A stretch of 64,000 nt of DNA from Vicinamibacterales bacterium (GCA_035293405.1 DATDOE010000138.1:46462-110461); one strand, 5' to 3'. Shown: positions 18,752 through 32,495, counted from the stretch's first letter. The notes: generated by a model from the letters alone, not told the origin. A program made the numbers and translations.

Positions 18752-19473
18752 GCCGGATTCTGATCGTCGAGGACGACCAGCACATCTCGGAGGGGCTGCG
18801 CTTCAACCTCGAGGCGGAGGGCCACGAAGCCTTCGTAGCGCCGGACGGCGAGCAGGCGCTCGATGTGCTGTTGAAGGAACGCCGCGCCTTCGACGTCGTC
18901 GTGCTCGACGTGATGCTGCCCGGCAAGGACGGCTTCACCGTCGCCGCGGAATTACGGGCGGCGGAGGAGTACACGCCGATTCTGATGCTGACGGCCCGGG
19001 GCCGCCCCGAAGACGTGCTGCACGGGTTCGAGGCCGGGGCCGACGACTACTTGCCGAAGCCGTTCGAGCTGGCGATCCTCATCGCCCGCATCAACGGCCT
19101 GCTGCGACGCCGCCGTTGGAACGAACAGGATGCTCCGGAGCCCGATGGCGCCCAGGCCGACGTCTATGCCTTCGCGGGCCGCACACTCGATTTCGGCGCG
19201 ATGGAAGTGCGCGCGCACGGCAAGTCGCACCGGCTGACGCAAATGGAGTCCGACCTGCTGCGCTATCTGGTGAAGAACGCCGGGCAGGCGGTGTCGCGCG
19301 GCACGATTCTCGAACAGGTGTGGGGACTGCACGAGAGCACCGACACGCGCGCGATCGACAACTTCATCGTGCGCCTGCGGCGCTATCTCGAGGACCGTCC
19401 GGCCTCACCGAAGATCCTGCTGACCGTTCGCGGGGTCGGCTACAAGTTCGTGCCGCAGGAGGCTGCTGGATAG
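18748..19473 (+). CDS. OmpR-family response regulator
   Basis: MSRILIVEDD...VLDVMLPGKDG...TVRGVGYKF. ATGA overlap with the kinase stop. The ORF-track N-terminal extension (18316) is antisense or other-frame noise. Confidence 0.9.
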   Translation: MSRILIVEDDQHISEGLRFNLEAEGHEAFVAPDGEQALDVLLKERRAFDVVVLDVMLPGKDGFTVAAELRAAEEYTPILMLTARGRPEDVLHGFEAGADDYLPKPFELAILIARINGLLRRRRWNEQDAPEPDGAQADVYAFAGRTLDFGAMEVRAHGKSHRLTQMESDLLRYLVKNAGQAVSRGTILEQVWGLHESTDTRAIDNFIVRLRRYLEDRPASPKILLTVRGVGYKFVPQEAAG

Positions 19474-19559
19474 CTTTCAGCGCCCAACCCGAGCCTCGCG
19501 CCAACTCCACAGCCGTCCAGATAGAATTGCGTAACCTGGATTTCTTCGATACGGCCGCA

Positions 19560-19618
19560 CCAGTTTGAGAGGCTGGCGGTAGCAATACCGTGGGGTTCGA
19601 GTCCCCCCTTCCGCACCA
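19560..19618 (+). pseudogene. tRNA-Leu(GAG) 3' fragment (anticodon arm to ACCA); no matching 5' acceptor strand found
   Basis: Hand fold: anticodon stem 19560-64/19572-76; loop ttGAGag; variable arm cggta-gcaa-taccg (19577-90); T arm tgggg-TTCGAGT-ccccc; acceptor 3' strand cttccgc + A + CCA. The required 5' strand g[ct]gg[ag][ag]g is absent from 19474-19559. Confidence 0.5.
19598..19618 (+). repeat. 21-nt direct repeat, copy 1 (cgagtccccccttccgcacca), the 3' end of the tRNA-Leu fragment
   Basis: Exact match to 33322-33342. Confidence 0.9.
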
Positions 19619-19905
19619 CCTAAGTTGTGTCCACGCAATGTGTTGCAGGACGCGTTACGAAGAACTTTCGAGGAACTGCCGTTCCCCCTTCTGCATATAT
19701 CCAACTCAAGACCCCAAAAGTCGGTCAGTCTATTTTGGAGGTGTCTACAAAGGGGGGAAGCTTACGCGCCGGCCGCGCGGCGATGCTGACGCGCGAGTCG
19801 CGATTCGTGACCGCGACGAATCGCGCCAGCGGCGGACTGCTCGTCGCGACGGGGACGCTGCTCGCGCTGAGAGGCGACTGAGATTAGATCGCGGCGAATC
19901 GAAAT

Positions 19906-20472
19906 TCAATGGACGCGATCAGACTCTTCAGACTGGGACGTGTATCGAGATGATGCTAGCCGCATCACGAGATACAGGAGCGCACCAGCGCCAGTTGCTC
20001 CGACTAGCCCCGCCGAGACGCCGACCTGAAACCATAACCACCACGCAGGACCGACCCAGAGGAGCCAAAGCACGATCGCCAACGGACTTTTACGCGTCAG
20101 CGCGCGTTCAACCATCGGCAAGATCAGCAGTGTCAAGACCAAACATACGCCGGCGTAACCGAGTAGGTTCAGGATCCCGCGAATCGATAGCGACGGGGCG
20201 AGGCTTGCCGCGAAATAGTCGACTAGAATCCACGCGAGCGCCAACGAGGGCAGGAGTGCGATCCAGACGCGTGTCTGAATTTCAGCGGGAGTTCGATTGA
20301 ACCCCAGTGCCCGCCAGCATCTCCCTGGCCAACTCTCCTCCTGCACCCTCCAATACATTCCGCGGATACACTGCTCGCACACTGCTGCGCTTTGGCCCGT
20401 GAGGAATCCTCTGCCACTTGCGGCATCAGCCCCACAGAAGTCGCAGACAACGTCAGACTGCCTTACGGACAT
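19906..20472 (-). CDS. ClpX-type C4 zinc-ribbon / four-TM membrane protein (candidate Rhs immunity protein)
   Basis: 188 aa. VVCDFCGADAASGRGFLTGQSAAVCEQCIRGM matches the ClpX zinc-binding-domain pattern CxxC-x18-CxxC. Four hydrophobic segments follow (VWIALLPSLALAWILVDYFAASL; GILNLLGYAGVCLVLTLLILPMV; LAIVLWLLWVGPAWWLWFQVGV; LVGATGAGALLYLVMRLA). It starts 43 nt after the Rhs stop on the same strand. Confidence 0.6.
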   Translation of the reverse strand: MSVRQSDVVCDFCGADAASGRGFLTGQSAAVCEQCIRGMYWRVQEESWPGRCWRALGFNRTPAEIQTRVWIALLPSLALAWILVDYFAASLAPSLSIRGILNLLGYAGVCLVLTLLILPMVERALTRKSPLAIVLWLLWVGPAWWLWFQVGVSAGLVGATGAGALLYLVMRLASSRYTSQSEESDRVH

Positions 20473-20515
20473 TGATCACGAGTAAAGTGCGGGTCTGCGC
20501 CGACGTGACGATTGT

Positions 20516-23500
20516 TCAGCACTTGAAGCAATTGCCTTTCGGGTCGGCAGCTGACATGCACGCGTTGTATCCCTGATTACTTTGCGTCGCACAGTAGGTC
20601 TCCAAAACCGTGCACGACACGGACCATACCACGATAGATCCCAGGCCTACAATCGCGCCCATTCGCCCGGTGGTCGTGATGATAGTCTTGGGGTTCATTA
20701 CCGTTGGGTTATAGGGCTTTGCTTTAAATGGAGCGGTCCACCCTCTCGGGCCTCCCGGTGGCAACGGCGGTGTAGGCGGCGGAGGATTCGGAAACGGCAA
20801 GACGTCGAGGCCAAAGGGATCACGATATGCGATCGGATTGTTTAACGCGTACGTGGCTCGGTTGACGCCTGACAGCAGCCCGAGTGGGTCCTCCGACAGC
20901 CACCGTGCCAGTTCCTGATCGTACGTGCGATAGAGCGTCGAATACGTGTTCGATGCGGCGTGCACGCTATGTCCGGTGAAGCCGTGGCTCGTCACGTCGG
21001 TCCCTGCAGCGAGTGATCGTCGGCCCCATGGGTCGTAGGTGTACCGAGCCAGTAACGTCCCGGACGCGTCCGCCACCTCGGTTACGCTGCCAAGATGATC
21101 AGCAGCGAAGAAGCGAGCTGCAGCCGCAATCTGCTCCCCGTATGCAAACGATCGGCGCGTCACCGTCGTGCCATCGGGGGCTCTTTCCTCGCAGATCTGC
21201 AGACCGCACCAAATCACCTTCGTATCCGCCTGGACGATTCCGTTGTCCTTTTGAATCACGCGGACACGTTGTTGAGTGCCGTCATAAATGAACTCACTGC
21301 GCGTGGTCCCGACACTCACTGCGACGAGTTGATTCCGCGCATCCCATTCGAAAGTGCGGCTACCATCGGAGGTGAGATTGCCATTCAAGTCGTACGTGAA
21401 GGCTTTCGTGCCGCCAAGCACGTTGGCCTGATACTGACGCGTCGTTTCATTGCCGCTTGGGTCAGTGGCCTTGATCGACACCGTGCTCGTTCCAACGGGC
21501 AGCACAGGTGTTGCACGAAACGCATTGCTCGAATCGACGACGGCCGGCGCGCCCTGGACATTGACGATTGCCGGTTCGTTCACAGTACCGCGAAACTGAA
21601 GCGGACCGCCGGGAGAGTACGTCACGAGTCGGTTCAGGCTATTGTGCATTGCTGCTGTAACCTGGTCATCAATCTGCTCGAACGCACGGTTGCCTGCTGG
21701 ATCAAAACCGTAGGCATAGCGCTTTAGAATTGTGAGCACGCCGGCCGTGTTCTGCTTTATCGCACTGGTGAGCTGATCGGCACTGTCGTATCCGTACGTC
21801 CACGACACCGCAGGGTCGCTGTCTGCCTGTTGCTGCCAGGTGCTGACATTGCCAACGACGTCGTACGTATAGTCGAATTTGGACAGCGTCGCGCCACCGG
21901 GGTACTTGTGATGAATCGTCTGCAGCCGATGATCCTGGATCGCTGGGAGAAACGAATACGTGCTCGTCTGCCCATTCGGATACGCCACGGTAGCGAGGCG
22001 ACTCGTCGTTCCGTCGTATGTGTACGTGAATGTGCCTAGTACGTTAGCCTCGGTCGTCACCCGGCCGAGAGCGTCGAGCGTCCAGGTCATGGTGTTCAGC
22101 GAGCTGTTAATTGACCGCGATGTTACGCGTCCGAGTTCGTCGTAGCCGTACGCGACCACATCGTTGGGTAGCGGCCCGTCCACGGTGGCGAGATGGCCAG
22201 CCCCGAGCTGTCCCGGTGCATGGTAGGCATATGCAGTGGTTCCGACCGCGTCCTGCATCGTCGCAGCACGCGGATAAGCGGGATCGTATGTGTAGCTCAA
22301 ACCAGGTGTGGCAATAGCGGCGTTTGTGTAAGTTGTGCCGTTCAGGCTGTCGTCCGCGTAATACGTGTGCGTCGTGACCTGATCCTTCGGATCGGTGACC
22401 GTTTTCAGGCGCCCTGTGGCATCGTAGGTGTAGAGCGTGTCCGTCGTCCCGTCAGCACGCAGTTCGCTGGTGACGCGCCCCTGCACATCGCGCTCCCACG
22501 ACGTACGCTGCCCTTTGCCATCGATGAGTGCATCGAGTCCGCCACATGCACACCACTCCCATTGGATGACACGCCCGATTGGGTCACGACTGGCCGTGCG
22601 CCTAGCGGCGCTGTCGTAATAGTGCCGTGTGACCCGGTCCTTGCGATCACGCTCCTCCCCGACGTCCAGCCGGTGATACGTAAACTGCTCAAACGTACCG
22701 TCAAGGTATGTTCGCTTGGTCACTCGGCTGAGGCCGTCGTAGTCGGTCGTGATCGAATCCCCATTAGGATCGGTCACCGTTCTGGTGCGGCCGTAGGCGT
22801 CGTAAGTGAACGTCGTTGTTGATCCTGTGATCGGTCCGGTGATGCCCAAAAGGTATCCCGTTGGGCCAGTATCGTAGACAAATGTCGTCGTCTCGTTCTT
22901 TGCGTTGGTCACCGTTAAGGGCCGACTGTCGGCGTTATAGGTCGTAGTGGTGGTCCGGCCGGCGCCATCCGTCGCCGTGGCCGGCAGGTGCTGCGCGTTG
23001 TAACCTCCGTAGCTTGCGAGCAGATCCGTGCCGGTTCCGGTGACCTGCCGCACCTCCAGCAAGTCGATGCCGTTGACCGCGTAGGTGTACGTCGTCTGCC
23101 GCCCGAGCGGATCGGTGCTTGACGTTACCATCCCCTTCCCGTTGTACGTCATCTGTGTAAGCTGCGTAGCACCACCGTCGAGCACGCGCGCGATCATCGT
23201 CGGGTTCCGTCCCGTGCCAGCCACGTTCGAGACGGTCGGTGATTGGTCGGGATAGCGGTACCACACGCGCGTTTCAAGAGGCCGCTTGACACTATGGGGG
23301 ATGTTCCACGCGTGCCCAAGCTGGTACGCCATCTCCTGCTGCAGAAGCCACTTCGTAATGACCGCGCTTGACAGTGCGCCAGGCGCGACGGCCATCGCCT
23401 GCTTGCTCCAATACAGCGAGTTGTATTGATCCATGTCCTCGTTCCACGCCGCGAACCCTGCGGGCACGTCCGCCGGCAATTGCGCCGGGATCCCCGCCGT

Positions 23501-25594
23501 GGTGCCGAGGTGGTATTCGAGCCGCTCGGTGCCGCCTTCCGGATCGGTCGCCTCGACACGGCGGAAGCTGCCCGCCGCGAGCGAGTCCGGCCCGCGTCGG
23601 AACGTTGTCGTCCCATAGGGCGTGGTCATCGAGGTCATGAAGTCGGTGTCGTCGTACGCGAAGCTCGAGGTCATACCGACTGCGTCCGTGATCGACATCA
23701 GCCGCCCCGAGCTGTCATAGCTGAGAAGCGCGGTCCGCCCGAAGGGGTCCGTGATTTTTGTGATGAGCAGTGGGTCGCCGGAATTCGCGTACGACAGCGT
23801 CGTGACTTGTCCGACGGCGTCCGTCAACGCGACCAGGCGGAAGCTCGAATCGTAGGTAAAGGCGAGTGTATTGCCTTGCGGATCGATCAGCTCGGTCAGC
23901 AAGATCTTCCGGTTCGGCAGCGACGCTACGCGGTCCGGAAATGTGAACACCTCGACAGTGCCGTCGGGTAACCGTCGTTCGTAGCGAGGTGGGTCGTTGG
24001 CGACCTGCACGAGAGTTGCGCGGCTCTTGAAGTGTGTGGATCCGCCGAACGACGTGTACTTCTCGATGCCTTCACTGCGAAGCACGACGTCGGTCCACGC
24101 AAAGGGAGCGACCAGCATCGTATTGTTGTCGGTCACGTACGAGAGCCAGTCAAAGCTCCATAGAGGACCGACACTGCTCGATGTCGGCACCGCGTCGAGC
24201 CGCGTGCTGCGATGGTTGTAGCGCAGCGTCCACGACATAGCGGGGCCACGTGGAGGCGTGTACGTCAACGGTGTATCAATGACGACGATCGCCGCCATCG
24301 AAGGATGCAGCCTATAGCGTGGCATTCCGGGTCCGAATCCACCACCACCGCCGCCACCACCGCCACCACCGCCACCGCATCCGCAGTCGTCTTCTACAGG
24401 CAGTCCCGGGTGACACCGACCGACGATGCGATCGGCTTCGACGGACTCAACAGCGCGACCGACAACAGCACGCGACGATGTAGGAACAAGCACGTAACCG
24501 CTTCCTTCGTCCCGCAGCGCGTTGCGCGACATCACCATCTCGCCGCCGAGCGCCGGGTCACGTAGTACGAAGCCGTTCTCGCGAGTGGCAATGACCGCCG
24601 AGTAGTGCTCGCTCTTCAGATGCACAATTGACGGCACCGGAATCTCCATCATGTCGTCCACGAAGCGCATCTCGAGCGCGACGCCAGCCTCGTCCGCCAG
24701 ATCGCGGAGCGCCACGAGCGACGTGCCCATGTGTGCCGGCCGATACGCGTCGACCTGCTTGATCGCGCGAGGGTTGTTCTTGCCGGTCACTGACATGAGG
24801 GACTTCAGCGCTTCCGGGCCAGAGTAGACAGCCATCTCGTGGTGATTCGTGAGCTGCCACAGGCCCTCGCGCGCTTCGGTCACCTTGTTGCCGGCGGATC
24901 CACGAATCGGGCGACGTCCGATCTCGTCGAGCTTCTTCTGCAGCGCATCGACCTGGCCGAAGGTCATCGCATGCGTGAGCCACTCGGACACGGCGATATC
25001 CGCCAGGTCGCGCACGGCCCGTTCGGTACCGTCCTTCGTCAGGTGCCACGCCTCGTCCCAGAGTCCGGCGGCACGAGAGAAATAACCTTCCCGCCATTTC
25101 AGCTTGCCCAGGTTTACCAGCAGCGACGGCCGCCACGGCGACTGCGGATAGCGCGCGGCGAACTCTTCGAGCATCCGCGCCGACCGCGATGAGGCAAACG
25201 CTTCCAGCGCGCGACCGAGATCGCGGTTCTCTTGGAGCGACGGCAGGCCATCCACGGGGCGCAGCGGGATCGGCAGCACGTACGCGCGCGCCAGATCGAC
25301 CGAGGACGGCGTCTCGTCGAACCGGACGGTCAGGTCTGGCGCCGTCACCGCCGGGCGTCTGCGATTCACCGCAACCGGCGTCTCGGGTTCCGGGCTGGGC
25401 GGAACAGCGTCGGCCTTCTTCGACGGCTGCTCGGCCTGAGCGGCAGGCGCCGGTCCTGCTGATTGCGCGGCCGCAGCAGGTTCGGGCATCGTCGCCAGAC
25501 ACTGCAGCACGATGAGCACGCGCACGAGCGGGTCGGCGAGTCGTCGTCGGAGGATATGGTGTCGTCGCAGCATGACTACTCGCATCCTGGTCAC
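20516..25594 (-). CDS. Rhs/YD-repeat polymorphic toxin protein
   Basis: 1692 aa with many YD repeats (YDSSGRL, TYDAYGR, YTYDATGRL). The Rhs core is LGSVTEV...YTYDPWGRR...GFTGH...WLSEDPLGL...NPIAYRDPFGL, followed by a 96-aa tip. GTG 25594 or ATG 25585 is the start. Confidence 0.9.
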   Translation of the reverse strand: MTRMRVVMLRRHHILRRRLADPLVRVLIVLQCLATMPEPAAAAQSAGPAPAAQAEQPSKKADAVPPSPEPETPVAVNRRRPAVTAPDLTVRFDETPSSVDLARAYVLPIPLRPVDGLPSLQENRDLGRALEAFASSRSARMLEEFAARYPQSPWRPSLLVNLGKLKWREGYFSRAAGLWDEAWHLTKDGTERAVRDLADIAVSEWLTHAMTFGQVDALQKKLDEIGRRPIRGSAGNKVTEAREGLWQLTNHHEMAVYSGPEALKSLMSVTGKNNPRAIKQVDAYRPAHMGTSLVALRDLADEAGVALEMRFVDDMMEIPVPSIVHLKSEHYSAVIATRENGFVLRDPALGGEMVMSRNALRDEGSGYVLVPTSSRAVVGRAVESVEADRIVGRCHPGLPVEDDCGCGGGGGGGGGGGGGFGPGMPRYRLHPSMAAIVVIDTPLTYTPPRGPAMSWTLRYNHRSTRLDAVPTSSSVGPLWSFDWLSYVTDNNTMLVAPFAWTDVVLRSEGIEKYTSFGGSTHFKSRATLVQVANDPPRYERRLPDGTVEVFTFPDRVASLPNRKILLTELIDPQGNTLAFTYDSSFRLVALTDAVGQVTTLSYANSGDPLLITKITDPFGRTALLSYDSSGRLMSITDAVGMTSSFAYDDTDFMTSMTTPYGTTTFRRGPDSLAAGSFRRVEATDPEGGTERLEYHLGTTAGIPAQLPADVPAGFAAWNEDMDQYNSLYWSKQAMAVAPGALSSAVITKWLLQQEMAYQLGHAWNIPHSVKRPLETRVWYRYPDQSPTVSNVAGTGRNPTMIARVLDGGATQLTQMTYNGKGMVTSSTDPLGRQTTYTYAVNGIDLLEVRQVTGTGTDLLASYGGYNAQHLPATATDGAGRTTTTTYNADSRPLTVTNAKNETTTFVYDTGPTGYLLGITGPITGSTTTFTYDAYGRTRTVTDPNGDSITTDYDGLSRVTKRTYLDGTFEQFTYHRLDVGEERDRKDRVTRHYYDSAARRTASRDPIGRVIQWEWCACGGLDALIDGKGQRTSWERDVQGRVTSELRADGTTDTLYTYDATGRLKTVTDPKDQVTTHTYYADDSLNGTTYTNAAIATPGLSYTYDPAYPRAATMQDAVGTTAYAYHAPGQLGAGHLATVDGPLPNDVVAYGYDELGRVTSRSINSSLNTMTWTLDALGRVTTEANVLGTFTYTYDGTTSRLATVAYPNGQTSTYSFLPAIQDHRLQTIHHKYPGGATLSKFDYTYDVVGNVSTWQQQADSDPAVSWTYGYDSADQLTSAIKQNTAGVLTILKRYAYGFDPAGNRAFEQIDDQVTAAMHNSLNRLVTYSPGGPLQFRGTVNEPAIVNVQGAPAVVDSSNAFRATPVLPVGTSTVSIKATDPSGNETTRQYQANVLGGTKAFTYDLNGNLTSDGSRTFEWDARNQLVAVSVGTTRSEFIYDGTQQRVRVIQKDNGIVQADTKVIWCGLQICEERAPDGTTVTRRSFAYGEQIAAAARFFAADHLGSVTEVADASGTLLARYTYDPWGRRSLAAGTDVTSHGFTGHSVHAASNTYSTLYRTYDQELARWLSEDPLGLLSGVNRATYALNNPIAYRDPFGLDVLPFPNPPPPTPPLPPGGPRGWTAPFKAKPYNPTVMNPKTIITTTGRMGAIVGLGSIVVWSVSCTVLETYCATQSNQGYNACMSAADPKGNCFKC
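24338..24376 (-). repeat. (GGY)13 microsatellite encoding a 13-residue poly-Gly tract inside the Rhs gene
   Basis: Plus strand reads tccaccaccaccgccgccaccaccgccaccaccgccacc, giving residues 407-419 in the context DDCGCG13FGPG. Confidence 0.9.
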
Positions 25595-25595
25595 T

Positions 25596-25687
25596 GGGCC
25601 GCCTGAAGGCGGCCCCTACGTTTCGTCTTGCGCCGCCTGAAGGCGGACACTACGTGCTCGTTCTCGTCCGCTCAAGCCGGACACTAC
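25596..25687 (-). repeat. Three tandem GTAG-headed REP hairpins in the giant-gene/Rhs spacer
   Basis: Minus-strand reads: GTAGGGGCCGCCTTCAGGCGGCCC (25596-25619), GTAGTGTCCGCCTTCAGGCGGCGC (25630-25653), GTAGTGTCCGGCTTGAGCGGAC (25666-25687). Confidence 0.65.
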
Positions 25688-25691
25688 GTGC

Positions 25692-28600
25692 TCACGGAAT
25701 CGGCACCGCGTTCGTCGGTTCAATCAACGTGATGACCGGCGGTGTCGTGTCGCCCGGCGTCGGCGTCAACGGGTCGTGGCGTGTGGAATCGAGCGGAAAC
25801 GCATCCACGCCGTCGTTGAAGCCATCGCCGTCGGTGTCGGTAAGGAACGGGTCGGTGCCTACCGCGGCTTCGGCGGCGCTCGCGACTCCGTCGCCGTCCG
25901 GATCCGGATTGGCGCCGACGTCAGCGAGGTCGATCTCGACCAGATCGGTCAGGCCGTTGCCGTTGCTGTCGGCGTTCAACGGATCGGTGCCGCGTGCGAG
26001 CTCGCGCCAGGTGGGCACGCCGTCGTTGTCCTGGTCGGACGTGAGCACGGTCTGGTCGCCCGTACTGAGCCCCGCGACCTGGGTGCCATCTCCGGCGCCC
26101 CCAGGTACCGCGGCCGTGCCGCTGCCCATCGCCCACACCGACCCATCGGCGCGAAGGATCGTGGAATGCGAGAATCCGGTGTCGGCGGCGAGAGCGGTGG
26201 GCATCTGCGGCAGCAGATTCGGCGAGGCCAGCATGAACTGGCCCCACGTCCACAGTCGCCCGTCCACGTCAGTGGCGATGCCGTGGAATGGACCAGCGGC
26301 AATCGTGCGCACGCGCGCCAAGGGCTGCACGATGTGCATACCCGTGGCGGACGTCGTATGACCGATTCCGAGTTGTCCAAACTGGTTGTCACCCCACGCA
26401 CGCACGGTACCGTCCGCGAGTCGCGCCAGACCGAACGCGCGGCCGGCCGCGACATCAGCGACGCCGCTCAGATTCGCGATGCGCGTCGGGAGGCTCTTCG
26501 GCAGCGTGGTCCCGTCGGCGAGCTGGCCCGCGTTATTGACACCCCACGCCCATGCCCACCCGCCGGCAGCGCCCTCGTCCTCGACGGCGAGCGAGAAGTC
26601 CTCGCCTGCGGCCACGCGACGCACACCGCGCAGGCCGATGACCTGAACCGGCGTCGTTCTCGTCGTGGTGGTGCCGTCACCAAGCTGGCCGGCGCTGTTG
26701 TCACCCCACGCCCACACCGTGCCATCGGCTTTCACCGCCAGCTGATGGCCGTGTCCGGCGGCGACCGCCACGGCGTCGGTGAGCCCGCTGATTTGCGTGG
26801 GGGTCGGGCCGGTGCCTTCGCCCCAGCGCCACACCGTGCCGTCTTGTTTGATCGCGAGCGAGAAGTACCGGCCCGCAGCGATGACCTTCACGTCGGTCAG
26901 GACTTGCACCGGTGTCGTGTGATTCGTGCCCGTTCCATCGCCGATCTGGCCGAAATTGTTGTCGCCCCAGGCCCAGACGACTCCGCCGGCCGTGAGCACG
27001 AGACTGTGAAATTCGCCGGCCGCCACCGCACCGGTGACCGCAAAATCAGCCCGCGACACCGCACTCACGGTTTGCCCGCTGGCCCAGGCGCGCACCTTCA
27101 GCAAGCGCGAGCGATCGATCGTGAGTCCCGTGGGCGGTACTTCGGGATCGCTCGTCGTGGGATCGACGCCGGTCAGGGTGTAACGAACCGTCGCGCCGCC
27201 TGGTGCCGACACGGTCACCGCTTGCGCGGTATCGAACCATCCTCCGCGCGGCGTGATCGTCGGCCTTCCCGATTGCCCGCTCGGATCGATCGTGAACGTC
27301 GCGGTGGCCACCGCGCTCGAGGTGTAGCCGGCGAGAAGGGCGCGTGCCTTCACCGTGGTCGTGCTGGTGAGCAGCAGCGGGTGCTGATACTGCGGCGAGG
27401 TCGTCGTCGGGTCGCTGCCATCCAGCGTGTAGCGAAGCGTCGCCCCGGTCGTGGCGACCGCGAGTGTCGCCAGCGTCAAGGACGGATAACTGCCCGCCGC
27501 AGGGGTGATCGTCGGCGTTGGGACCGTCCCGGCAGAGATCCAGTAGCTGGCAAAGCCCGAATCGCTCGATGTCCAACCGGTCTTGAACGCGCGTGCCTTG
27601 ACGGTACGCGTGTCGGACACGGCGATGGCGCTCGAATACGCGGTTGAGCTCGATGTCGGCTCGGTCGAGTCCAGCGTGTAGGTGATGGACGCACCAGGCG
27701 TGGTCGTGCTGATCGACACGTTCTGCGTGGACGCGTACCAGTTGGTCCCTGGTGACAGCGCAGGCGTGACCACTTTCAGCTCGTACGTCGCGCTCGTGAT
27801 GTTGCTGATGACCGCGCCGGGCTTGAACGCTCGCGCGTTCAGGATTGTGGTCTGAGCGATACTGACTGAGCCGCCGGACGCGATCGACGTGCTGCTCTCG
27901 GTCGGGTCGTTGCCGTCGGTCGTGTACCGCACGACTGCCTCGGCGTCGGCCTCGGTAATCGTGACGTTGAACGTCGCATACGACAGACCCGAACCCACGC
28001 TGAAGACCGGTTGCGCGACCTTCCACGCCATGCCGGCGTCGGCAATCTGCACCGGTGTCCAGCGATTCGTCTGCGTGCCGTCGCCGAGCTGTCCTTCGTT
28101 GTTGCGCCCCCAGCTCCACACGGAGCCGTCGGTCCCGAGCGCGAGCGAGTGCTGCGCCCCCGCCCCGATCGCCGCGATCATCGGCAGCCCCGACACCGAG
28201 ACCGGCGTCGTGCGATTGATGCCGCTGCCGTCACCCAGCGACCCGTTGCCGTTGTTGCCCCACGCCCACACGACCCCGGAGGAATCGAGCGCGAGCGAAT
28301 GCGATTCACCAGCAGCCACCGCGACGATGTTGGTCAGGCCGGTGACGGTGATGGGTGAGGTTCGCTGCGTGAGTGTGCCGTCGCCCAGTTGGCCGCTCCC
28401 GTTGAAGCCCCACGCGCGCACGGTGCCATCGCTCAATCGTGCCAGGCCGTGCGCGCTGCCGCCCGACACGCCGGTTGCCGTCGTCATGCCGGACACCGAT
28501 CCCGGCGTGGTCCGGCTCGTCGTGTTCCCGGTGCCGAGCTGTCCGTTGCCGTTGTTGCCCCAGCTCCAGGCCGTCCCGTCCGATTTGACGGCCAGCGAGA

Positions 28601-31600
28601 ACCCGTTGGCGGCGGCGACGGCGGTCACATTCGTCAATGTCGAGACCGCGACCGCCGTCAGGCGCTGCGTCGTTGTCCCATCGCCGATCTGACCGTTGGA
28701 ATTCATGCCCCAGCCGACGAGCGTGCCGTCTGACTTGAGCGCCAATGCATAGGACACTCCGCCAGACATCGCGACCACATTCGCCAGACCGGTCGGCTGC
28801 ACGGGCACGAAGCGGGTGGTCGTGGAGTTGTCGCCGAGCTGTCCATTGCCGTTCGAGCCCCACGACCACGGCTGCTGACCGCCACCCGCGGCAAGGGAAA
28901 AGGATTGGCCACCTGCAGCGTGAGTGGCCCCTGTCACACCGCTGATGACGGTCGGCAGCACCTTACGGGTGTTGCCGCCGTTCCCGAGCTGCCCTGAGCT
29001 GCCACTGCCCCAGGCGAACATCACACCGTCGCTGCGAATCGCGAGCGAATGTTCGTAGCCCGCTGAGATGCGCGGGGTCATCGCGGCGCCCGTGACCTGA
29101 TAGGTGCCAGTGGCGACAGCGCTGGTGGTCGCGCCGGTCTTGAACGCGGCGACCTTCAGCGTGTAGTTGCCGACGTAGAGCGTGCCACCCGAGGGAACCG
29201 GCGGGTCGTTTGCGGTGGGATCGATGCCGTTGAGCGTGTACCGCAGCGTAGCGCCGGACGTCGCTGTTGACAGGGTGATGATCTGACCGGCAGCGTAGGT
29301 CCCCGACGTCGGCGACAGCGTGGGCGTCGCCACCACGATCGTGTACGCCTGCGTCGTCGTGCCGCTCGTGGTCCAGTCGATGTGGAACGCACGCGCCTTG
29401 AGCGTTTGCGTCGTGGACACCGTGACTGGTCCTGTATAGATGGGCGACGTGCCGCTGGGCGTGCTGTTATCGGTCGTGTAGCGGATGACCGCGCCGCTCA
29501 TTGCCGACATCGTCACCACGGCCTGCGAGGTGTAGGTGCCGCCAGCCGGATCGAGCGTCGGCGCCGCCAGCGTGCCGAAGTTGAACGAGTAGGTGCCCGT
29601 TCGCATCGTGCTCGGTTGCCAGTTGGCGCGGAAGCCGATCGCATTGAGCACCGTGAATGTGCCGATCGAAATTGGACCGGTGTATGCCGTTGACGCCTCG
29701 GTCGGCGTGCTCCCGTCCGTTGTATAGCGAATCGTCGCGCCCGGGCTGGTGGTCGAGATCGAGACCGACTGCGGTGTCGTGTAGGTCGATGCAATCGGAC
29801 TGAACGACGGCAGGGCCACCTGCAGCGTGTAGAGAGCGGATTGGACGTTGCTCTCTGGTTGTCCCGTCTTCCACGCCTTGGCCTTGAGTGTCCGTGTTTC
29901 GTCGATTGTGACCGTGCCACCCGACGCGATCGTCGGATCGCTTTCGGTCGGATCGGTGCCGGTGAGTGTGTAGTGAATCGTCGATCCGGACGTCAAGGCG
30001 GTGACCGTGACGACCTTCACGACGTTGTAGGTGCCGGGCGCGACGTTGAACTCCGGCGTGGCCACCTTCCAGGCGTAGGCGACCTCGCTAATCGCCACGG
30101 CGGCCGGCGGTCGCGTCGTCGTCCCGTCACCGATCTGGCCAAACAGGACCTGGCCGTGTGCCGCGGCGGACACAGTGCCTGTGCTCGTGACGAACAGCGT
30201 GTGAGCGAGGCCGCTCGCGATCTGCCATGACGGCGGATCGCCAGTGAGCGTCGCCGGGCTGGTTTGATTGCCGCTACCCGTATATCCCCATAGACGCGCA
30301 GTACCATCGAGCCGCGCGGCCAGCGAACGTTGCGTACCGGCATCGACACTGCGCACGTCAGTGATCCCGCTCACCACCGTCGGCGACGAGCGCGGCGTCA
30401 CGGTTGTGCCGTCGCCGATCTGCCCGGCACTGTTCGCGCCCCATGCCTTCAGCGTGAGGTCGGAGAGAATCACCATCGAATGCCGATCGCCGGCGGCGAT
30501 GCCGACGACGCCCGTGACGCCGGTGACGTGCACGGGGGAAGTTCGTGACGTCGTCGTGCCGTCACCGAGCTGCCCGTAAGTGTTGGTGCCCCAGGCCCAC
30601 ACGGTACCGTCACCTTTCAATACCAGGGTGTGATCGCTGCCGGCGGCAATGGCGATCACGTCGCTCAGTGACGTCACCTGGGTCGGCGTCAATTTCCGCA
30701 CGCTCGTGCCATCGCCAACCTGGCCTCCGGCACCCCATGCCCAGACGGTCCCGTCGCTCTCGAGGGCCACCGAGTGCAATCGCCCGCCAGCCACGGCGAT
30801 CACATCCGTCAACGAGCTGACGGCGACTGGCGTCGTCCGATTCGTTTGTGAGTTGTCGCCGATCTGACCTTCACTGTTATGGCCCCAGGCCATCAGGGTC
30901 CCGTTCGACGTGAGCGCGATCGTGTGGTTGTCGCCGGCCGCGACTGCGGTCACGCCGGTCGCCGTCGTGACCGCGCCCGGCACGCGTCCGTCCAGATCGG
31001 TGCCTCGCTCGCCGGAGCCGTCCGATCCCCACGTCCACACTTGCCCGCTGTCGTCTACGGCGACGGAGTGGTTGTTCCGAGCACCAATCCGCGTCGGCTC
31101 CACCGTGGTCATGAAGGACCACGAGTAGTTGGACGCGAGCGCATTGCCGGCCAAGTCCTCGACGCGCGACCCACTGCCTCCACCGGCCAGCGTCACGGTG
31201 TACGGCCGGGTCGGCAACAGCGGCGCACCGGGTGTGAACGTGGCCGTCATCGTCGGCGCGTCGTAGCTGATGCTGCCGCTGACAGCCAGATTGCGGGTGT
31301 CCTTGACGACGAATGTCGTCGAGGTCAGCGTGGCACTGTTGATCGCCTCGCTGAAGACGGCCTGAATCGACCCGGATAGAGACGCGTTGCGCACATTGGA
31401 TGTGGGCGTCGTGCCGGTGACGCTCGGGGGTGTGACATCGCTCGTCGTGAAGGTCCACGAGGCCGTCGAGGCGAGCGAGTTGCCGGCCACATCCTTGACG
31501 ACCGGCGCCGTGCCGCCGCCGCGGACGTTCACGGTGTAGGTCGCGAGCTGCGCGATCGCTGCGGCTGGAGTGAACGTCGCCGTCTTGCTCGGGTCGTCGT

Positions 31601-32495
31601 AGCTCACGACACCTGAGACCAGGGCATTGCTCGGATCGCGCAGCTCCACGGTGCTCGTGCTCACCGTGGTGGGGTTGAGAGATTCACTGAAGGTGATCGT
31701 GACGACCGACGAGGGGTGCACGTTGATGGTGCCGTTCGCCGGGACCGACTCGGTGATCGTCGGCGGCGTCAGGTCGTCGATCGACGCGCCCATGTCAACG
31801 TTGATCTGTGATTCGCTCAACGCGACGTTATAGAGGCGCACTTCGTCGAGTTTGCCGGGGAACCATTGGCTGCCCGTCGTGCTGCCGCCGATCGACAGAT
31901 CCTGCGTGGTCGCACTGATCGACCCAGACACCGATGCACTGCCGTCCTGGACACCATTGACCCAGACGAGCAGCTGCGAGCCCGTGTATGTCGCGGCGAG
32001 ATGCGTCCACGTCAGATCGGTGAGGACGGTCGCGCCGGTCACGGTGTAGGGAGTACCGCCGATCACGACCTCGATTCGGGCCTTCGAGTCGGTGGTCAGC
32101 GAGAGCGAGTACGCGACGCCGCCGGCCGCGTCCTTGCGGACCACGGGACGCGCCTGGCTGCTCACCTCCGGGCGCACCCACGCCTGGATCGTGAACGCCG
32201 ACGAGAGATCCAGCGGATTGGCGTCGGCGACCGTGACGATGTCGTCAACGCCGTCAAACGCAAGGCCTGAGCCGTATTGACCGGTGGTCCAGACTGCACC
32301 GCTCAGCGTGGCCGTGTGATCGTTCGCAGAGCGGTCGTCAGAAGTCGAGCCGGCGCCCTCGTTGAAGGACCACGCGGCCACCAGATTCGACTGGCTCGAG
32401 ACCCGTCCCGTTTGTAGAACCAGCGCAGACAGCGCTAGCCCGATACAGAGGACTTCACGCACGCCTGCGCGCGCGCCGAGCAAACGGCTCCGCAT
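25692..32495 (-). CDS. Giant secreted multidomain protein: LamG-like lectin, Ig-like domains, three RCC1-repeat propeller blocks alternating with chitobiase-C/Fn3-like arrays, C-terminal thrombospondin type-3 repeats
   Basis: 2267 aa with a signal peptide. LamG-like segment: LVAAWSFNEGAGS...LDEVRLYNVALS. At least 14 RCC1 signatures (WGxNxxGQ[LI]GDG). At least 8 repeats of the xIRYTxDGSxPT...KARAF type. TSP3-like DQDNDGVP, DPDGDGV, DTDGDGFNDGVD. Confidence 0.85.
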   Translation of the reverse strand: MRSRLLGARAGVREVLCIGLALSALVLQTGRVSSQSNLVAAWSFNEGAGSTSDDRSANDHTATLSGAVWTTGQYGSGLAFDGVDDIVTVADANPLDLSSAFTIQAWVRPEVSSQARPVVRKDAAGGVAYSLSLTTDSKARIEVVIGGTPYTVTGATVLTDLTWTHLAATYTGSQLLVWVNGVQDGSASVSGSISATTQDLSIGGSTTGSQWFPGKLDEVRLYNVALSESQINVDMGASIDDLTPPTITESVPANGTINVHPSSVVTITFSESLNPTTVSTSTVELRDPSNALVSGVVSYDDPSKTATFTPAAAIAQLATYTVNVRGGGTAPVVKDVAGNSLASTASWTFTTSDVTPPSVTGTTPTSNVRNASLSGSIQAVFSEAINSATLTSTTFVVKDTRNLAVSGSISYDAPTMTATFTPGAPLLPTRPYTVTLAGGGSGSRVEDLAGNALASNYSWSFMTTVEPTRIGARNNHSVAVDDSGQVWTWGSDGSGERGTDLDGRVPGAVTTATGVTAVAAGDNHTIALTSNGTLMAWGHNSEGQIGDNSQTNRTTPVAVSSLTDVIAVAGGRLHSVALESDGTVWAWGAGGQVGDGTSVRKLTPTQVTSLSDVIAIAAGSDHTLVLKGDGTVWAWGTNTYGQLGDGTTTSRTSPVHVTGVTGVVGIAAGDRHSMVILSDLTLKAWGANSAGQIGDGTTVTPRSSPTVVSGITDVRSVDAGTQRSLAARLDGTARLWGYTGSGNQTSPATLTGDPPSWQIASGLAHTLFVTSTGTVSAAAHGQVLFGQIGDGTTTRPPAAVAISEVAYAWKVATPEFNVAPGTYNVVKVVTVTALTSGSTIHYTLTGTDPTESDPTIASGGTVTIDETRTLKAKAWKTGQPESNVQSALYTLQVALPSFSPIASTYTTPQSVSISTTSPGATIRYTTDGSTPTEASTAYTGPISIGTFTVLNAIGFRANWQPSTMRTGTYSFNFGTLAAPTLDPAGGTYTSQAVVTMSAMSGAVIRYTTDNSTPSGTSPIYTGPVTVSTTQTLKARAFHIDWTTSGTTTQAYTIVVATPTLSPTSGTYAAGQIITLSTATSGATLRYTLNGIDPTANDPPVPSGGTLYVGNYTLKVAAFKTGATTSAVATGTYQVTGAAMTPRISAGYEHSLAIRSDGVMFAWGSGSSGQLGNGGNTRKVLPTVISGVTGATHAAGGQSFSLAAGGGQQPWSWGSNGNGQLGDNSTTTRFVPVQPTGLANVVAMSGGVSYALALKSDGTLVGWGMNSNGQIGDGTTTQRLTAVAVSTLTNVTAVAAANGFSLAVKSDGTAWSWGNNGNGQLGTGNTTSRTTPGSVSGMTTATGVSGGSAHGLARLSDGTVRAWGFNGSGQLGDGTLTQRTSPITVTGLTNIVAVAAGESHSLALDSSGVVWAWGNNGNGSLGDGSGINRTTPVSVSGLPMIAAIGAGAQHSLALGTDGSVWSWGRNNEGQLGDGTQTNRWTPVQIADAGMAWKVAQPVFSVGSGLSYATFNVTITEADAEAVVRYTTDGNDPTESSTSIASGGSVSIAQTTILNARAFKPGAVISNITSATYELKVVTPALSPGTNWYASTQNVSISTTTPGASITYTLDSTEPTSSSTAYSSAIAVSDTRTVKARAFKTGWTSSDSGFASYWISAGTVPTPTITPAAGSYPSLTLATLAVATTGATLRYTLDGSDPTTTSPQYQHPLLLTSTTTVKARALLAGYTSSAVATATFTIDPSGQSGRPTITPRGGWFDTAQAVTVSAPGGATVRYTLTGVDPTTSDPEVPPTGLTIDRSRLLKVRAWASGQTVSAVSRADFAVTGAVAAGEFHSLVLTAGGVVWAWGDNNFGQIGDGTGTNHTTPVQVLTDVKVIAAGRYFSLAIKQDGTVWRWGEGTGPTPTQISGLTDAVAVAAGHGHQLAVKADGTVWAWGDNSAGQLGDGTTTTRTTPVQVIGLRGVRRVAAGEDFSLAVEDEGAAGGWAWAWGVNNAGQLADGTTLPKSLPTRIANLSGVADVAAGRAFGLARLADGTVRAWGDNQFGQLGIGHTTSATGMHIVQPLARVRTIAAGPFHGIATDVDGRLWTWGQFMLASPNLLPQMPTALAADTGFSHSTILRADGSVWAMGSGTAAVPGGAGDGTQVAGLSTGDQTVLTSDQDNDGVPTWRELARGTDPLNADSNGNGLTDLVEIDLADVGANPDPDGDGVASAAEAAVGTDPFLTDTDGDGFNDGVDAFPLDSTRHDPLTPTPGDTTPPVITLIEPTNAVPIP

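Follow-up and report, generated by a model that had tools for sequence, protein, structure and literature searches.

A 64,000-nucleotide stretch of DNA from a Vicinamibacterales bacterium (DATDOE010000138.1, 46462-110461; hereafter the window) carries the gene of a large Rhs/YD-repeat protein whose variable C-terminus, a tip of 96 residues, is followed directly by an open reading frame (ORF) for a protein with a ClpX-type zinc finger and four hydrophobic segments. As judged from the comparison of homologous loci, the tip and the ORF form a linked, selected and mobile cassette at a position where sister proteins carry toxins. We consider it likely that the two constitute a toxin-immunity pair. 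The overall explanation that we favour, with somewhat more confidence than doubt, is that a Sec-exported Rhs protein bears a polymorphic-toxin cassette in which a membrane-acting peptide would be matched by a membrane immunity protein. Whether the tip acts at the membrane or envelope appears to us an evenly balanced question, and a pore or ionophore as its specific mode of action is put forward tentatively and with some doubt. Most likely, both the toxin and the immunity protein of this locus belong to new families, and the architecture of the immunity protein is new as well, all within the familiar logic of Rhs cassettes.

Relatives of the ORF were recovered by a word-index search, which returned P0002 (78% identical) and P0003 (47%); in both cases the gene directly upstream encodes an Rhs C-terminus that ends in DPxGL and continues into a clearly homologous tip. 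A pattern scan of metagenomes added a third homologue, 41% identical, at locus L004. The same word-index search with the 96-residue tip returned nothing, the parent protein included, as the method is insensitive to short domains within long proteins. The tip was therefore also represented by an exhaustive HMMER search, in which a 79-residue query gave six matches among 1.84e9 representative proteins. Three of these (P0004, P0124, and P0126) are true relatives, whereas P0125, P0127, and P0128 were rejected as spurious, being repeat proteins on inspection. P0004 and P0126 are C-terminal fragments of Rhs proteins, the latter in locus L008, and P0124 is a bare 60-residue tip directly after an Rhs core in locus L009. 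The next gene after the tip encodes 187 residues in L008 and 178 residues in L009, both with a precomputed match to PF06689, and a 189-residue gene lies 29 nt downstream of P0004, where it is known from its length and spacing alone. Adjacency of tip (or tip remnant) and ORF thus holds for all retrievable homologues, that is, six sequenced loci including the window and one contig without DNA; outside the window the ORF stands directly downstream of a tip or its remnant in L001, L002/L003, L004, L008, and L009. The Rhs core is of one and the same type throughout.

The two members of the pair also diverge and decay together. Their identity to the window sequences falls in parallel, from 80 and 78% for tip and ORF in the closest relative to 62 and 47%, 49 and 40%, and finally 45 and 22%. 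Purifying selection is evident in both, with dN/dS values (ratios of nonsynonymous to synonymous substitution rates) of 0.15-0.18 for the tip and 0.22-0.23 for the ORF, compared with 0.21 for the Rhs core; conservation of the two reading frames across independent metagenomes at values of 0.15-0.23 argues that they are more than chance ORFs. In L004 (6876-8760), only 12 residues of the tip C-terminus, ...MKAADPSGHCFTCK, are left next to an IS3-family transposase (rve, E 2e-26), and the zinc-finger gene downstream of the tip remnant ...AADPSGHCFTCK has a frameshift in a run of eight T, so that it is either a pseudogene or affected by a homopolymer sequencing error. L008 is an orphan array consisting of an Rhs fragment with its tip, the zinc-finger gene, a second Rhs fragment, and a broken tip of the HExxH type. 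L009 (300-800) has a similar modular layout, in which a frameshift within the Pro-rich linker splits the tip from the Rhs core and an internal Rhs segment begins 22 nt past the stop codon of the zinc-finger gene. The window itself holds one copy of the cassette and no orphan modules. Its nucleotide homology with L001 ends at position 19900, six bases past the stop codon of the ORF.

Exchange at this position is seen on sister proteins. Among 120 close Rhs cores, the tip is shared by P0004 only, and the other close cores (50-67% identical) bear unrelated tips that are followed by unrelated downstream genes. The locus shows what is expected of Rhs/YD cassettes, namely RHS repeats, a core with DPxGL and a variable tip, a co-varying small downstream gene, and orphan modules. 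As far as comparison of loci can show it, the tip is an exchangeable payload and the ORF its dedicated partner, which move, diverge, and decay together. This agrees with the preliminary description of the window, made before any database search, which had proposed an exchangeable toxin-immunity cassette; that description had also named, as a ground for giving up the proposal, a complete lack of linkage between rhs tips and homologues of the ORF, and all the homologues found lie beside tips or remnants of tips. The family is rare. Pattern scans of GTDB species genomes, JGI metagenome contigs, and IMG/VR gave no confirmed match for the tip and only L004 for the ORF, and tblastn against PLSDB plasmids gave no match for either.

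The border between core and tip is sharply defined. The last residues of the core are ...NPIAYRDPFGL, whose Leu codon occupies 20807-20809; the stop codon of the gene is at 20516-20518, and DPFGL is an autocleavage-type motif directly after which related cores diverge. The tip consists of the 96 residues that follow (20519-20806; Rhs residues 1597-1692) and has five Cys within its last 32 residues. The 43-nt spacer to the next start codon compares with spacers of 16-42 nt in homologous loci. Coordinates, tip sequence, Cys count, gap, and length of the ORF are all as the preliminary description gave them (Table 1).

Table 1. Positions of the cassette, its parts, and the Rhs protein that carries it, in coordinates of the window.
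Feature	Position	Strand	Basis or remark
Candidate immunity protein, 188 aa	19906..20472	-	N-terminal ClpX-type C4 zinc finger, then four hydrophobic segments
Four-segment hydrophobic region, aa 66-174	19951..20277	-	Hydropathy scan of four homologues
Zinc finger and next helix, aa 8-57, predicted cytoplasmic	20302..20451	-	Alignment
Spacer, 43 nt, from Rhs stop codon to next ATG at 20472	20473..20515	-	Sequence
Rhs/YD-repeat protein, 1692 aa	20516..25594	-	ORF list and translation
Cys-rich tail, 28 aa, four further Cys, ETYCATQSNQGYNACMSAADPKGNCFKC	20519..20602	-	Most conserved tip element
Single hydrophobic segment, candidate membrane helix, RMGAIVGLGSIVVWSVSCTVL	20603..20665	-	Hydropathy
Basic N-terminal motif, 24 aa, GWTAPFKAKPYNPTVMNPKTIITT	20672..20743	-	Six-sequence tip alignment
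Pro-rich linker, 21 aa, DVLPFPNPPPPTPPLPPGGPR	20744..20806	-	Translation
Rhs-associated core, aa 1520-1596	20807..21037	-	TIGR03696 Rhs_assc_core, 64.7 bits; C-terminal border DPFGL

The product of the ORF is best understood from its family. Its zinc-finger pattern is C10-x2-C13-x18-C32-x2-C35, and all four Cys are invariant in six aligned sequences. Taken alone, the window protein stays below threshold against zf-C4_ClpX (22 bits against a gathering score of 27, E 1.5e-4), whereas PF06689 is matched by six of six family members, with a best E of 5.8e-13. A profile of the family, compared with the Protein Data Bank (PDB), retrieves the zinc-binding domains of Escherichia coli ClpX (2ds7, 2ds5, and 1ovx; E 5e-8 to 7e-7). 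Judged from these comparisons, the zinc finger is real and its assignment secure at the family level. The ClpX models match residues 5-47 of the ORF only, and nothing ClpX-like was seen beyond about residue 47. There the hydrophobic stretches follow, at about residues 68-90, 97-120, 129-148, and 150-172, and a basic loop between segments 2 and 3, VERALTRK, fits a topology with both termini inside according to the positive-inside rule. The zinc finger and its adjoining helix are identical to the window at 48 of 50 positions in L001 and 43 of 50 in L003; the membrane region of L003 retains 34 of 109. Both the zinc ribbon and the four hydrophobic stretches had been recognized in the preliminary description.

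The tip can be divided into four parts, of which the first, a Pro-rich stretch, occurs in every homologue with varying length. The basic motif after it has an invariant M-x-P and carries positive charge on the flank that adjoins the hydrophobic segment. One hydrophobic 19-mer is present in each of the six homologous tips, with a Kyte-Doolittle score over 19 residues of 1.93 in the window and 1.3-2.4 across the family, and in all six the net charge is +2 to +4 on its N-terminal flank and -2 to +1 on its C-terminal flank. The Cys-rich tail is the best conserved part: it shares 15-24 of 27-28 residues with five homologues (20-24 in four of them), and its invariant residues are E, Y, C, A, Q, Y, C, M, A, A, P, C, and C. 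Neither as a single sequence nor as a six-sequence profile does the tip match anything in Pfam (E up to 10), NCBIfam, PADLOC, or the PDB chains. The profile searches of both proteins for which the preliminary description had called thus left the tip without a known enzymatic toxin family, in keeping with its remark that no catalytic motif could be seen, and confirmed the zinc finger of the ORF. Its comparison of the tip with microcins and class II bacteriocins found no backing, as the tip is the C-terminus of a 1692-residue Rhs protein and has no Pfam match at E up to 10. The idea that one side of the tip helix bears a conserved polar stripe (W-C-E-C-Q) was considered and rejected, because the helical moment of conservation is not significant: it was matched by 2511 of 10000 shuffles, and for the C-terminal half by 1118 of 10000.

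The repertoire of tips in this Rhs lineage gives the cassette its context. A search with the last 285 residues of the Rhs protein returned 164 relatives, of which the named ones come from metagenome-assembled genomes of Vicinamibacteraceae and Acidimicrobiia. As for the window itself, its MsrA clusters at 90% identity with a protein from a metagenome-assembled genome of Vicinamibacterales. Many of them are fragments of about 300 residues that start just before DANGNLTxDGxRTFEWDARNQL, a common start that suggests a fixed recombination boundary. The 81 related tips that could be parsed have a median length of 117 residues and a median of 7 Cys; four or more Cys are present in 77 of them, and the share of Cys is 5.9% in the lineage tips against 0.9% in the cores. 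A strongly hydrophobic 19-mer is found in 15 of the 81. Among the tip types are a secreted-type phospholipase A2 (PF00068), an M15-type peptidase (PF08291), HExxH domains, and Gly/Ala-rich zipper-like tails, and the phospholipase, the peptidase, and the zipper-like tips point to envelope targets as a common theme. The composition suggests that the lineage tips are disulfide-stabilised toxins on a Sec-exported scaffold. The idea that the tip is unusually small has therefore to be given up for this Rhs lineage. Since small size, Cys richness, and hydrophobicity are normal in the lineage, what distinguishes the present cassette is its family sequence and the zinc finger of its partner.

Unrelated short, hydrophobic, Cys-rich tips on the same type of Rhs core were observed in L007 (1775-3093) and L011 (1-1612 and 6001-7545). 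They are followed by proteins of 127-139 residues with about four transmembrane segments and no zinc finger, so candidate immunity proteins of the membrane type recur in the lineage. This reduces the novelty that had been claimed for a hydrophobic tip next to a four-segment membrane protein. Kinship of the present tip with another short, hydrophobic, Cys-rich tip, P0083, and of the ORF with the four-segment ORF beside it, was rejected on the basis of hhalign probabilities of 7% and 6%.

With regard to delivery, Pfam reported no PAAR domain in the Rhs protein and no VgrG, Hcp, or Tss family among the 29 other window ORFs scanned (four smaller ones were covered through precomputed Pfam matches of L005, and eight others lie outside the scan); a type VI secretion system may still be encoded elsewhere in the genome. 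The other large ORFs of the window encode a TonB-dependent receptor, an outer-membrane efflux protein, and ordinary metabolic proteins; the receptor and the efflux protein identify the organism as diderm. With its Sec-like signal, the Rhs protein is probably exported by Sec.

On these grounds a mechanism can be proposed in which autocleavage at DPFGL would free the tip as a functional peptide of about 75 residues. The freed peptide would insert into the inner membrane of a target cell with its N-terminus inside and its C-terminus outside, an orientation suggested by the basic N-terminal flank, the helix rich in small residues, and the neutral-to-acidic Cys tail. The tail with its four Cys would then lie at the oxidising periplasmic face, where disulfide bonds could form, and the inserted peptide would harm the membrane barrier, the proton-motive force, or a membrane-embedded target. 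The partner would be an inner-membrane immunity protein that begins and ends in the cytoplasm, crosses the membrane four times, and exposes its zinc finger and the VERALTRK loop to the cytoplasm. It may neutralise the peptide through helix-helix binding in the bilayer. Its ClpX-like zinc-binding domain, probably a module for dimerisation or peptide binding as in ClpX, could either grip the basic cytoplasmic N-terminal segment of the toxin or dimerise the immunity protein, with a contact to ClpX as a further candidate role. A more elaborate version, which we regard as a long shot, would make the immunity protein an active two-compartment device, whose membrane domain traps the helix while the zinc domain either grips the N-terminal segment or pairs with the zinc-binding domain of the ClpX of the cell and passes the trapped peptide on to ClpXP for destruction. 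If such a hand-over took place, this would be the first immunity protein to act as a protease adaptor, and the N-domain of ClpX would have been co-opted into inter-bacterial conflict.

Several observations weigh against the favoured explanation. Conservation within the tip is lowest in the hydrophobic segment, where 7-10 of 21 positions are identical in the four more distant relatives; the segment is marginal as a membrane helix, with a summed free energy on the Hessa scale of +0.3 to +5 kcal/mol, and its Kyte-Doolittle score is only 1.29 in L003. The GxxxG pattern is not conserved: G-x3-G-x-G is found in the window and L001 only, and the glycine-zipper motif is absent from L009 (AVVLVTAAWATAW) and L008 (GAVVFLAIANVL), so that the glycine zipper announced in the preliminary description is present in the window tip and is no property of the family. 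Conservation is highest in a polar part of the tip, and this is a better fit to specific recognition than to the formation of a generic pore. AlphaFold2 models, each built from a three-sequence alignment, are of low confidence (predicted local distance difference test scores, pLDDT, of 55.6 for the tip and 53.5 for the ORF); the hydrophobic segment is predicted to be helical, likewise with low confidence, and the models are too poor for a fold search. In addition, P0043, a tip that also combines a transmembrane segment with a Cys-rich part, is followed by a soluble 151-residue ORF, so a helix in the tip does not by itself predict a membrane immunity protein. The census of the ORF family is incomplete; the exhaustive search queried the tip only. 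Finally, the route of the tip to a target cell is apparently not accounted for by PAAR or type VI secretion domains in the scanned ORFs of the window.

The marginal and poorly conserved helix, the unconserved GxxxG, and the polar character of the conserved part are the reasons for the weight we give to an alternative that we still think unlikely, in which the tip resembles a warhead on an anchor. The helix would merely tether and orient the peptide, and the disulfide-bonded 28-residue tail would be the active part, binding one particular component of the envelope from the periplasmic side, for instance a membrane protein or a lipid-linked precursor of the cell wall. The immunity protein would block it through capture of the helix. 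Such a division of labour agrees with the conservation profile, in which the tail (20-24 of 27-28 residues in four relatives) far exceeds the helix (7-10 of 21), and it has parallels in P0021, P0043, P0052, and P0111, where a hydrophobic helix precedes a larger Cys-rich domain. The Cys richness of the whole lineage, with at least 4 Cys in 77 of 81 tips, would fit folding in an oxidising compartment after Sec export. However, the tail resembles no known binding peptide or domain among PDB chains and in Pfam, 28 residues are very few for a specific binder, and the orientation is deduced from flank charges alone.

A dedicated chaperone would likewise be expected to co-occur strictly with the tip, and the ORF could be an accessory or handling factor in the producer. 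It might, for example, chaperone or hold the hydrophobic tip until or while it is exported, or keep the Rhs C-terminus in place as its partner in the membrane. Hydrophobic segments of effectors are known to need chaperones of the Eag type, and the identity of the zinc domain among three loci (43-48 of 50) is more in line with a conserved binding partner in the cytoplasm than with a toxin interface under rapid evolution. But the known chaperones of effectors target N-terminal segments, and their genes usually lie upstream, whereas this ORF lies directly downstream of the tip and is kept in orphan or decayed modules (L004 and L008), which is the pattern of an immunity gene; we find a role as handling factor improbable. 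A further proposal is that the tip is no toxin at all and is either a degraded leftover or the part by which the C-terminus of the Rhs protein is anchored in the membrane, its short tail docking on the zinc-finger membrane protein. The tip is small, lacks a catalytic motif, and has a single hydrophobic helix, which in a Sec-exported protein could serve as a stop-transfer anchor that leaves the Cys tail in the cytoplasm near the zinc finger. This seems to us very improbable, as purifying selection extends throughout the tip (dN/dS 0.15-0.18), the tip follows DPxGL where sister cores bear phospholipase A2, peptidase, and other toxin domains, the cassette is found in orphan arrays, and an acidic or neutral C-terminal flank is poorly suited to stop transfer.

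The closest precedent for a membrane-directed toxin with a membrane immunity protein is the Tse5 (RhsP1)-CT/Tsi5 pair of Pseudomonas aeruginosa, in which a pore-forming Rhs tip is opposed by an integral inner-membrane immunity protein (PMC9637101) and for which a cryo-EM structure of Tse5 has been published (PMC10684867). The two systems share a DPxGL-type motif at the end of the shell, a non-enzymatic hydrophobic payload, a membrane protein in the next gene, and depolarisation as the expected effect. They differ in that Tse5-CT has 149 residues and several membrane regions, compared with 96 residues and one region here; in that Tse5 is PAAR-like, VgrG-loaded, and delivered by the type VI secretion system, whereas the present Rhs protein has a Sec-like signal and no PAAR match; and in that Tsi5 has two predicted transmembrane regions and no zinc finger, in contrast to the four segments and zinc finger of the ORF. 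A profile of the tip gave no match among all PDB chain sequences at E up to 10, a comparison in which the presence of Tse5-CT within a deposited chain is unconfirmed.

Ionophore toxins of contact-dependent inhibition (CdiA-CT/CdiI) likewise combine a polymorphic, depolarising C-terminal payload with a dedicated immunity gene directly downstream, but they are predicted five-helix bundles that follow entry domains, are secreted by the two-partner route, and are described without mention of a zinc finger (PMC11630599). They have no Rhs scaffold, and no homology with the present tip was detected. EsxX of Staphylococcus aureus is a glycine-zipper LXG toxin against which the cytoplasmic ExiAB and the membrane-bound ExiCD are both needed for immunity (PMC12744356). 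Like the proposed tip peptide it is a small membrane-depolarising C-terminal toxin, and by analogy the zinc-finger membrane protein could join an ExiAB-like cytoplasmic role and an ExiCD-like membrane role in one chain. However, EsxX is a Gram-positive substrate of the type VII secretion system whose glycine zipper is essential, and its immunity functions reside in separate polypeptides without zinc fingers. The conserved (G/A/S)xxxG repeat of glycine-zipper toxins of the EsxX, TspA, and CdzC/D type was not found in the tip family. Tox-WTIP, the only (predicted) pore-forming polymorphic-toxin domain listed in the accessible text of Zhang et al. 2012 (PMC3482391), is also a short, hydrophobic, non-catalytic tip of RHS proteins. 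It has two membrane helices as well as RxxR and Wx[ST]IP motifs, whereas the tip alignment has neither motif, one hydrophobic segment, and no Pfam match.

As to the partner, it shares with the zinc-binding domain of ClpX (PF06689; 1ovx and 2ds5-2ds8) the CxxC-x18-19-CxxC ribbon and helix, but it has no AAA+ module, and its zinc domain is fused to four membrane segments within a toxin cassette. In its body plan and in the size of its conserved part, about 55 residues, the tip is reminiscent of toxins of the Hok/Gef type. These have a basic N-terminal flank, a single membrane helix, and a short tail in the periplasm that contains cysteines, and they belong to type I toxin-antitoxin systems controlled by antisense RNA. 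The likeness is one of analogy, as Hok/Gef toxins are chromosomal or plasmid-borne, are made inside the cell, are not carried on Rhs proteins, and have no protein immunity; Pfam gave no match of the tip to them.

The novelty that had been proposed for the cassette is thus narrower than first thought. A membrane-directed Rhs toxin with a membrane immunity protein is already represented by Tse5/Tsi5, while a zinc finger on an immunity protein was not found described: no literature was found that links a ClpX-type zinc finger to immunity proteins, and the accessible text of PMC3482391 does not mention ClpX. A zinc-finger-bearing immunity protein therefore appears to be undescribed. If our explanation is correct, the tip would be a very small addition to the non-enzymatic, membrane-directed Rhs toxins, with 55-75 functional residues or about half of Tse5-CT, and Sec-exported Rhs proteins of soil Acidobacteria would bear a disulfide-rich, envelope-directed repertoire of tips. 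The partner would be the first immunity protein with a ClpX-type zinc-binding domain, which raises the question of steric neutralisation as opposed to cytoplasmic capture or proteolysis. The practical reach is limited, since about seven loci among billions of proteins are involved, all from uncultured soil bacteria, and all conclusions that go beyond genetic linkage are inferential.

Base composition sets the cassette apart from its neighbours. The guanine-cytosine (GC) content is 57.3% in the tip and 59.1% in the ORF, and 66.8 and 66.4% in the adjacent response-regulator and kinase genes. The contrast reported in the preliminary description therefore exists, although its value of about 73% for the adjacent genes was too high. 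The contrast is sharper at third codon positions (GC3), where the tip and ORF have 65% and the flanking genes 87-90%. GC3 also declines along the Rhs gene, being 0.77-0.82 over its first 800 codons and 0.63-0.67 over the final 500, which suggests that acquired DNA reaches beyond the tip and ORF well into the Rhs core. A promoter scan of 19400-26000 found no sigma-70-like promoter, the sigma-70 model being uninformative for an acidobacterium. No consistent Shine-Dalgarno motif precedes the ORF across loci, which is uninformative on its expression.

Between the cassette and the response-regulator gene, a piece on the plus strand (19556-19622) resembles by eye the 3' two-thirds of a tRNA-Leu(GAG), with the anticodon arm, a long variable arm, a T arm of GGGG-TTCGAGT-CCCC, and the 3' strand of the acceptor with CCA. 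It lies about 285 nt past the stop codon of the zinc-finger gene. ARAGORN and Rfam did not call this piece, and no full tRNA was found within the window. It may be the remnant of an integration site at the edge of the acquired DNA.

The Rhs protein itself consists, from the N- to the C-terminus, of a Sec-like signal, a weak C39-like region, a poly-Gly run, the RHS shell, the Rhs-associated core, and the tip. The shell is recognized by PF05593 RHS_repeat in 15 stretches (E 2e-50, Pfam) and by TIGR01643 YD_repeat_2x (E 5.6e-36, NCBIfam). The C39-like region (24476-24733, minus strand; residues 288-373) scores 21.3 bits against Peptidase_C39, for which the gathering score is 22. By eye, the position of the catalytic Cys is taken by Ser (..AVYSGPEAL..), while the positions of His (HYSAV) and Asp (LRDP) are retained, so the region is apparently either a degenerate C39-like domain or a Ser variant. 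The poly-Gly run comprises 13 Gly at about residues 405-420. On the same strand, 97 nt upstream of the Rhs gene, lies an ORF of 2267 residues (25692-32495, minus strand) with Laminin_G_3, Big_5, several RCC1-like propellers (WD40_RLD, E 4e-228), and repeated CHB_HEX_C/Fn3_assoc domains; this ORF and the Rhs gene may share a transcript, and its product may play a part in surface display or delivery.

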